64,000 nucleotides of DNA, from contig OZ287751.1 of the NCBI GenBank assembly GCA_965649765.1, positions 8,680,001 to 8,744,000 on the forward strand, read 5' to 3'. The position numbers and the translations under genes are program-made. The notes below the pieces were generated by a model. That model saw only the letters and a list, made by a program, of their open reading frames with translations. It did no database searches and had not been told where the DNA came from. Position 1 is the first letter of the stretch. Every line of letters starts with the position of its first letter. This document shows positions 12,109 to 13,374 of the stretch, piece after piece. This DNA is from Bispira polyomma (lineage: Eukaryota).

Positions 12109-13362
12109 ATGGCTAGCGTGGCATGTACGGGCTGCCGTGGTAAACACCCCAGACCAGCAGGACGACGATGCCCATTTCTTCAACAGGACGAATATGATGG
12201 CTCAGTTGAAACGGACAGTGAGGCGGTCGAACTACAGGAAGATCTGTTCGATGTAACCCAGCAAAACCTGAACACGCAACAGGAACAAGACATTGAACAG
12301 CAGCCAGAGACATCTAACCAGGACAATACATCTGGTGAGTCGCTCCAAGGAGCGAACGTACAAGCTGATGTGAACGTCCAGATATTAGCCGAACTGAAAA
12401 AGCTAGGTAATCGTTTGAATTTAGTCGAAAAAAATCAAAGAATTGTGTCAAAAACAAAAGTGGTTAAAAACATAAAGAAAACAAAGGACACTGCGTCAGT
12501 AAGCAAAGTAAATTCAAATGTTCAGGTCGGACAGAGTGCTACAGTGTGTCAGTCGCTTAGGACCAGAAATACGTGTAAATGTGCCTGTAACGACGAAGTG
12601 GTCAGCTGTCAGTCAAGCAACTCAGGGGCAAACCAAGGGACTGAGAACATTGTACCAAGCATGAACGTCATAAAGTCAAAGGACATCCAGCACCAAGTTG
12701 ACGCCAGACTCGCAGAACTAGCAGTGCTCAACGAGCAGGGCTTGTCAGGTAAACAAGTTAAATCACAAAGGGGTGGTCAGGTTGACGTTTGGGTGAAACG
12801 CCGTGTTAAATGGCCACATCAGTATGTTCTAGGGGGTTCAACCAAAGATAGGCTTACTTACAATCAGTTGTCCTTTTCACAATTCGTACTAGGTTTTACA
12901 CGTACAATTCAAGAGGAAGAGAATCAAAATGTCAAAGATCTAATGTTGGCCTATCTTGGGGACCTTCTAGAAGATGTACAGGATTTTTCTTGGCAGTCTG
13001 CCAAAAATAGTCATGCAGTGTTGCTATGTCATATGGAAGAGGGCAAAGTAGAATGGACGGATACGTCCAAGATTGACAGAATAAGGCGGGTATATGCCCA
13101 GAGGCATGTACCTAGTGCAGTAGGCAGAAGTAGTCAAAAACCATTTAAGGACACGTATAAAAACAGAAAAACGGGCACCCCTTGTTTCAGATTCCAAAAA
13201 GGCAGTTGTAAATTTAGCAAAGACCATGAAATGGGTAACAAGTTGTACACTCACGTATGTGAATCTTGTTTTGCGAATGGTAAACTATATGGGCACCCAG
13301 ATAAGGACTGTAGAAATAAAAATCAGTTTTCAAAAAACGAAGGTGGGCCAGCAACCATGTAG
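12109..13362 (+). CDS. gag: DIRS ORF1 gag-like protein (417 aa)
   Basis: Intact ORF with an N-terminal CxxCxxxHxxPxGxxC motif, a conserved WPH...W...HAVLLC core and a C-terminal Cys/His-rich knuckle region (CFRFQKGSC...H...HVCESC...GHPDKDC). Confidence 0.85.
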   Translation: MASVACTGCRGKHPRPAGRRCPFLQQDEYDGSVETDSEAVELQEDLFDVTQQNLNTQQEQDIEQQPETSNQDNTSGESLQGANVQADVNVQILAELKKLGNRLNLVEKNQRIVSKTKVVKNIKKTKDTASVSKVNSNVQVGQSATVCQSLRTRNTCKCACNDEVVSCQSSNSGANQGTENIVPSMNVIKSKDIQHQVDARLAELAVLNEQGLSGKQVKSQRGGQVDVWVKRRVKWPHQYVLGGSTKDRLTYNQLSFSQFVLGFTRTIQEEENQNVKDLMLAYLGDLLEDVQDFSWQSAKNSHAVLLCHMEEGKVEWTDTSKIDRIRRVYAQRHVPSAVGRSSQKPFKDTYKNRKTGTPCFRFQKGSCKFSKDHEMGNKLYTHVCESCFANGKLYGHPDKDCRNKNQFSKNEGGPATM

Positions 13363-13374
13363 GTGATGCTGGTC
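13332..13374 (+). promoter_or_regulatory. candidate programmed -1 ribosomal frameshift signal
   Basis: Slippery heptamer A_AAA_AAC (13332-13338) in gag codon phase, a 7-nt spacer, then stem GGCCAGCA (13346-13353) / TGCTGGTC (13367-13374) with an inner ACC/GGT stem. The -1 frame is open into ORF 13425-14201. Confidence 0.7.

Follow-up and report, generated by a model that had tools for sequence, protein, structure and literature searches.

The retroelement and its relatives

The DNA analyzed here, referred to below as the window, is a stretch of 64,000 nucleotides from one contig (positions 8,680,001 to 8,744,000) of the 1.04-Gb Bispira polyomma genome. Alignment to sister copies delimits a retroelement spanning positions 11482 to 17194, in which the open reading frames (ORFs) for gag, reverse transcriptase/RNase H (RT/RNase H), and a tyrosine recombinase (YR) follow one another in that order on one strand (Table 1). 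The pol ORF terminates directly after RNase H. The gag-like ORF1 has no match in Pfam; in the host genome it has at least 150 scored matches, from 8704 candidates. The ESM Atlas returned only clusters of hypothetical proteins, with recognition under the threshold. No Pfam match to a methyltransferase (MT), a protease, or a DDE integrase was obtained in the element or the relatives scanned, and none of the eight intact relatives scanned contains an SGNH hydrolase ORF.

Table 1. Coordinates of the features of the element in the window
Feature	Position	Strand	Evidence
5' split direct repeat A, 240 bp	11482..11721	+	Recurs downstream in sister L032; more diverged in L043, L044, and L046
Gag-like ORF1, 417 aa, with C-terminal Cys/His zinc-finger-like region	12109..13362	+	Cys/His invariant in gag alignment
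Predicted phase-1 splice donor in gag, exon end at 12748 after 213 codons	12746..12754	+	Conservation of G/GTA (slash, exon end)
Slippery heptamer A_AAA_AAC	13332..13338	+	Sequence, family comparison
5' part of pol in frame -1, a low-complexity extension whose first ATG is codon 157	13332..14201	+	Continuous with RT in sisters L031 and L032
7-nt spacer	13339..13345	+	Spacer of 5 to 9 nt in 69/71 loci, mode 7
Stem-loop, predicted frameshift stimulator, holding the gag stop in the window subfamily	13346..13374	+	Folding, family comparison
Conserved Trp-rich ...SYAxV peptide, pol frame, before first ATG	13550..13601	+	33/38 loci
RT and RNase H	14162..16027	+	Pfam RVT_1 (E 1.3e-8) and RVT_3 (E 3.5e-4)
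Copy-specific small insertion breaking pol	14164..14168	+	Missing from 8/8 sister copies, as well as from contigs belonging to three runs
Predicted phase-1 splice acceptor TTGTAG, 27 nt past the pol stop	16049..16054	+	Conservation of phase and distance
YR ORF remnant	16055..16552	+	Sister alignment; phage-integrase Pfam matches on intact relative L092
Split direct repeat B, single copy, without A2-B2 tail	16578..17194	+	Sister alignment

The original prediction had described a protease-less element of the DIRS order. Both descriptions hold, and the second can be refined: judged by described features (PMC3783388, PMC7192593, PMC9210276) rather than an RT tree, the element is Ngaro-like within that order, with the caution, given in the part of PMC4157794 covered, that these features, including MT loss, are homoplastic. 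In the covered portions of the same three papers and of PMC8547959, published Ngaro-like elements share the ORF order, the A-ORFs-B-A-B repeats, and the lack of MT, protease, and DDE integrase. DIRS1-like elements have inverted terminal repeats with an ICR, together with an MT domain, whereas the window element has direct repeats and no MT; PAT-like elements have split direct repeats, which fit, and an MT domain, which is absent here.

The complete repeat arrangement, A-ORFs-B-A-spacer-B, is found in L032, L044, and L046 and in the young relatives L093, L094, L105, and L113. The window copy and seven of its eight sisters (L031 and L033 to L038) show A-ORFs-B only, without the A2-B2 tail, which is the form that recombination between B repeats would leave. 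In sister L032, the B-A-spacer unit is tandemly repeated. In the host genome, the YR start of the L092 family is present in at least 15 nearly identical copies, so the Ngaro group was active recently.

The window copy itself is dead. Its pol is split by a private 2-nt insertion near 14164 to 14168, present in none of the eight sister copies, and its YR ORF has lost approximately 0.4 to 0.5 kb internally at 16176. Because the insertion moves RT-RNase H into the third frame, the -1 frame that leaves gag stops short of RT, and this copy cannot produce a Gag-Pol containing RT. A second programmed slip at 14164 was rejected as an explanation, the frame change being the copy-specific insertion. The predicted frameshift signal described below is, in this dead copy, an inheritance from an active ancestor. 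A poly-G run in RNase H (15708 to 15721) exceeds that of most sister copies by an in-frame 9 nt.

Elsewhere in the window, a reverse-transcriptase fragment (9813 to 10439, +; Pfam RVT_1) is unrelated to the Ngaro-like element; we take it to be LINE-like from its YADD motif. An uninterrupted ORF of at least 1256 codons (60231 to 63998, +) runs past the window end and has the full ADAMTS architecture, with propeptide, reprolysin, cysteine-rich, spacer, and TSP1-repeat domains. ADAMTS genes usually have many exons, so this ORF may be an intronless retrogene.

A candidate frameshift signal at the end of gag

The heptamer AAAAAAC near the end of gag lies in the X_XXY_YYZ phase of the frame that begins at the ATG at 12109. 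After the spacer follows a hairpin composed of an 8-bp outer stem and a 3-bp inner ACC/GGU helix, with a folding energy of -15.9 kcal/mol, and the gag stop (TAG, 13360 to 13362) spans its loop and inner helix. These are the parts named in the original prediction: the heptamer was recovered exactly, the stem-loop folds as drawn, and the stop does fall in its apical part. The further statement that the -1 frame is open through the next ORF, with no ATG near its start, is correct as to the open frame (13320 to 14201) and the distant first ATG (157 codons past the heptamer), with the qualification that in this copy the frame misses RT by the 2-nt insertion.

Judged from the window copy by itself, the signal is modest. 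Among 200 shuffled versions of the 42-mer, 4 folded equally well (z -2.6), and three longer windows gave weaker values (z -1.4 to -1.8). The element is A-rich, and its hairpin ranks only 16th by fold among 3905 windows of 35 nt. The most stable 35-nt fold of the coding region (-18 kcal/mol) lies upstream of the gag zinc finger, at approximately 13079 to 13122. What raises the signal above chance is the comparison across the family.

The heptamer is conserved across the family

For this comparison, gag ends were located by anchoring on the zinc finger in 81 loci, comprising the window, 20 loci from a DNA search, and, out of the 150 protein matches, 60 picked for differing lengths. The check on family copies suggested in the original prediction bears it out: 64 of the 81 carry an in-phase A_AAA_AAC before the gag stop. 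A further 7 carry A_AAA_AAT; 6 have a match that is out of phase, beyond a premature stop, or elsewhere, and 4 have none. When loci are clustered, the heptamer is present in 24 of 25 clusters at 80% identity and in all 14 at 70%; the clusters are related, so that 24/25 does not represent 24 independent trials and binomial values overstate independence. In the AAT variants inspected, the -1 frame closes after two codons where GA comes next. In L245, L246, L248, and L121, the gag stop comes directly after the heptamer.

Could the heptamer be a by-product, in A-rich DNA, of a Gag protein that must end in K-N-E/D? Gags do end in xKN[ED], both here and in ENA, and AAA accounts for 72% of Lys codons. 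However, the base before AAA is A at all 71 terminal xKN sites, in codons of six amino acids (Ser, TCA in 33; Ala, GCA in 25; Val in 6; Leu in 3; Thr in 2; Pro in 2). The Asn codon is AAC in 64 of the 71, against a background of 42%; the expectation from codon usage for A_AAA_AAC is 0.08, and only 7 of 106 xKN sites elsewhere in the gag body match it. The constraint at the heptamer, as read from these sites, is one on the DNA, acting at synonymous positions. In addition, the stem lies mostly behind the gag stop, so constraint on Gag cannot maintain it. An origin in Gag protein constraint is therefore largely refuted already, and we give it almost no credence.

Conservation extends beyond the close relatives. 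The first queries had included the gag end; the retest of a distant clade used the L141 gag as the query, without the motif or the terminal KN. In this clade, whose gags are 33 to 39% identical to that of the window and which is mostly one family, 27 of the 30 top loci have an in-phase A_AAA_AAC. Twenty further stretches, six of them re-fetched, yielded AAC in 15, AAT in 2, and no heptamer in 3. Among 63 ENA gags, available as protein sequences only and 45 to 66% identical to the nearest sampled gag, 30 end in KNx and 42 have KN within the last 12 residues. Reading heptamer, spacer, and stem in the -1 frame gives the peptide KKRxx[GS]C, with which 11 of 86 long ENA pols begin. A metagenome scan yielded one locus from 70 candidates.

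A hairpin follows after a short spacer in most loci

The downstream hairpin was compared over the same 71 loci. Over the 35 nt that begin 5 nt past the heptamer, 65 of them reach a folding energy of -10 kcal/mol or lower (median, -15.7). Among controls, 3 of 264 A6Y sites elsewhere and 33 of 1020 windows placed at random reach this cutoff. The main helix begins 5 to 9 nt after the heptamer in 69 of the 71. Because structure-blind alignment misaligned the variable loops, base pairs were scored in a register set by the heptamer position. At a fixed 7-nt spacer, all seven pairs form in 19 of 25 representatives, compared with 27 of 1000 controls. Between the window type and the commonest type, which is the GGCACTGC-type cassette, stem pairs 2, 3, and 5 are changed on both sides; this covariation amounts to few events, among 25 representatives hand-picked from the 71 loci. 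The sequence 3' of the stem diverges immediately.

The structural part of the original prediction is thus borne out for the outer stem, in which the three pairs covary, and not for the inner ACC/GGU helix, which is limited to the window subfamily and L048. Placement of the stop in the loop is likewise a trait of the subfamily, the gag stop sitting in the spacer in most families. Nor did the pseudoknot suggested for this region find support: across the 25 representatives, the longest helix between loop and downstream sequence averaged 4.24, against 4.04 in shuffled sequences, giving no signal. The hairpin is not universal, and some members of the distant clade have a weak one or none. L205 and L209 have no stable downstream fold (z 0.09 and -0.32), and L224 has a longer hairpin (z -1.86).

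The same A6 run could in principle act during transcription, if RNA polymerase added an A there and thereby produced a fused gag-pol mRNA. The run is indeed a homopolymer, and in the decayed loci L004, L022, and L027 gag is fused to pol by 1-nt changes close to the site. Transcriptional slippage needs no reading phase, whereas the run is kept at six A plus C, in the phase for tRNA re-pairing and with a 3' hairpin at ribosomal spacing. We consider this explanation very unlikely.

Pol is an open frame with no conserved start codon

In 8 of 71 loci, the -1 frame is open from the heptamer to the end of RNase H, over 815 to 870 codons, and four more intact cases were found among further relatives. 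The first ATG of the eight open relatives lies at codon 3, 49, 115 (in four of them), 166, or 381. Pol homology in L105 starts at codon 205, and the first ATG lies 176 codons inside it. Over the first 205 pol codons, four of four relatives have no stop in the pol frame, compared with 6 to 29 in the other frames. This extension is under little amino-acid constraint, with 6 synonymous to 15 nonsynonymous and 4 to 19 changes between close copies. The Trp-rich SYAxV peptide within it is kept in 33 of the 38 loci with at least 130 open codons, and precedes the first ATG in 20 of these 33, the window included. In a distant clade, L232 and L233 have pols of 1,180 to 1,200 codons, with an N-terminal extension of approximately 600 codons ahead of RT.

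Initiation at an internal ATG, either by re-initiation at an AUGA overlap or from a subgenomic RNA, with the hairpin serving packaging or re-initiation, could account for some of these pols. An ATG three codons past the heptamer overlaps the TGA stop in some families only (L086, L109, L120, L135 group), and many pols have some ATG before RT. Across the family, however, the first ATG falls anywhere from codon 3 to codon 425 at unconserved positions, lies within pol homology in L105, L112, L123, and L128, and is preceded by the conserved peptide in the 20 loci mentioned above, and the heptamer would be left unexplained. An ATG-initiated pol, which the original prediction had set against its own reading, is hence not what the family displays, as no pol ATG is conserved, and internal initiation appears improbable to a high degree.

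One locus departs from the frameshift arrangement. In L141, whose gag is 36% identical to that of the window, pol follows gag in the same frame, separated from it by one TGA (L141:1317-1322), and there is no heptamer. As judged from this one contig, L141 may be a readthrough variant or a decayed fused ORF.

A predicted splice to the recombinase

The YR ORF shows a different pattern. Over 66 loci, its frame relative to pol is 0 (28 loci), -1 (29 loci), or +1 (9 loci). Frameshifting into YR was therefore rejected, as this variation is partly due to decay but is seen among intact families as well. In L092, the integrase SAM-like domain begins at residue 11, ahead of the first Met at residue 36.

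Two conserved sites suggest how YR may be reached. A mid-gag glycine just before the conserved core reads G/GTA in phase 1 in 71 of 81 loci, compared with 14 of 159 pol glycines. In six of the ten loci that lack it, the donor is recognizable once frame damage or a further glycine is allowed, and the donor was also found in distant clades and in L141. Behind pol, 60 of 65 loci have their first YAG past the stop in phase 1 relative to YR, in 53 of these exactly 68 nt before a YR anchor, the anchor having been found in 69 of 82 loci. Donor and acceptor are thus conserved in matching phase, as for a spliceosomal GT-AG intron. On this pattern, YR is probably reached by a splice from the mid-gag donor to the acceptor behind the pol stop. 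Such a splice would join the 213 N-terminal residues of Gag to YR and remove the gag core, the slip site, and pol.

Possible start codons within YR count against the predicted splice. In the window subfamily, codon 15 of the YR ORF is a Met (L031, L036), and most YR ORFs have one at codons 31 to 42. Contigs of three runs of unknown kind contained, among the matches listed, no donor-acceptor joint on the window or L094, a result that speaks neither for nor against the splice. Spliced DNA copies, with gag within 1.5 kb upstream, were absent from 60 loci anchored on the YR start, which were top-scoring loci of two families.

The conserved gag donor also raises the idea that pol itself is spliced, for instance by joining the mid-gag donor to an acceptor where pol begins. 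Foamy viruses reach pol by splicing. Against this, no more than 13 of 71 loci have a phase-1 TTNYAG acceptor within -30 to +180 nt of the heptamer, in contrast to the nearly universal acceptor before YR. A spliced pol is a highly implausible alternative to frameshifting.

Discussion

The sequence evidence points strongly to a -1 programmed frameshift: the heptamer, spacer, and stem-loop at the gag end very probably drive synthesis of Gag-Pol, as originally proposed. Following the retroviral model, the hairpin would pause the ribosome with tRNA-Lys and tRNA-Asn on AAA AAC, and both tRNAs would slip one base back. A minority of ribosomes would thus make Gag-Pol, of approximately 1,300 amino acids in an unbroken member, while most would stop and release Gag. 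The slip would set a low ratio of RT to Gag and place RT within the Gag particle. As no protease was found, Gag-Pol would either remain uncut or be cleaved by the host.

The components are familiar ones. As far as the covered part of PMC3835772 goes, A_AAA_AAC with a 6- to 9-nt spacer is listed for MMTV, HTLV, BLV, EIAV, and astroviruses. The gag-pro sites of MMTV, HTLV, and BLV and the gag-pol site of EIAV share with the window family the heptamer, a spacer of 5 to 9 nt, a GC-rich 3' structure, and a position at the junction of structural and enzyme genes (PMC3835772). Compared with these retroviral and astroviral signals, the window family has a simple hairpin with no pseudoknot signal, no protease downstream, and a non-viral host element. 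The heptamer is among the most shifty in mammalian ribosomes according to the part of PMC5009743 covered, which also reports -1 gag-pol frameshifting in 28 of 51 animal LTR retrotransposons surveyed (Ty3/Gypsy, BEL). Those elements likewise have pol in the -1 frame behind a classical heptamer, and they belong to a different retroelement order. In the first 300,000 of the 449,034 characters of that paper, DIRS, Ngaro, and tyrosine recombinase are not mentioned.

The portions covered of PMC3266345, PMC3783388, PMC6681497, PMC9210276, PMC8547959, PMC7192593, PMC4157794, and PMC9341512 describe ORF overlaps and no slip site or splice. The literature searched contained neither a gag-pol slip site nor a YR splice for DIRS or Ngaro elements; subscription papers (Goodwin and Poulter 2004, Poulter and Goodwin 2005), Repbase notes, and supplements lay outside its scope and may state gag-pol frameshifting. 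What appears to be a textbook-type -1 signal is thus found family-wide in a retroelement order where the searched literature describes none. For the expression of start-codon-less ORFs in YR retrotransposons, that literature offers only a guess at frameshifting for the Ngaro YR, as in Poulter and Butler 2015, quoted in the covered part of PMC13003380, where YR translation by programmed frameshifts is called "probable". The predicted splice would go against this guess, as here the YR frame varies against pol and the splice acceptor is conserved.

Considered together, these features lead us to favor, with moderate confidence, a scheme in which a large animal Ngaro clade makes three products from one RNA, namely, Gag, Gag-Pol by a -1 slip, and a spliced fusion of the Gag N terminus to YR. 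Retroviruses express gag, obtain Gag-Pol by recoding, and obtain env by splicing. The proposed scheme would have in common with theirs the single RNA, the recoding for pol, and the splice for the last ORF, and would differ in that splicing yields an integrase-type enzyme joined to Gag's N-terminal half.

The frameshift mechanism itself is textbook. Its 43-nt cassette, present family-wide, allows a direct reporter test, and the exact predicted splice junction allows RT-PCR. Dozens of natural variants of one signal, differing in stems and stop positions, are also at hand. Annotation would change as well, since gene callers begin these pols at arbitrary ATGs and the YRs within their first domain. 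In Cafeteria Ngaro elements, ORF1 correlates with target choice (PMC8547959, in the part covered). If the scheme is true, the Gag portion of the spliced product could attach the recombinase either to target DNA or to the particle. Distant relatives such as L141 may use stop readthrough, echoing the retroviral split between frameshifting and readthrough, and gag-pol -1 frameshifting would be extended to a protease-less retroelement order.
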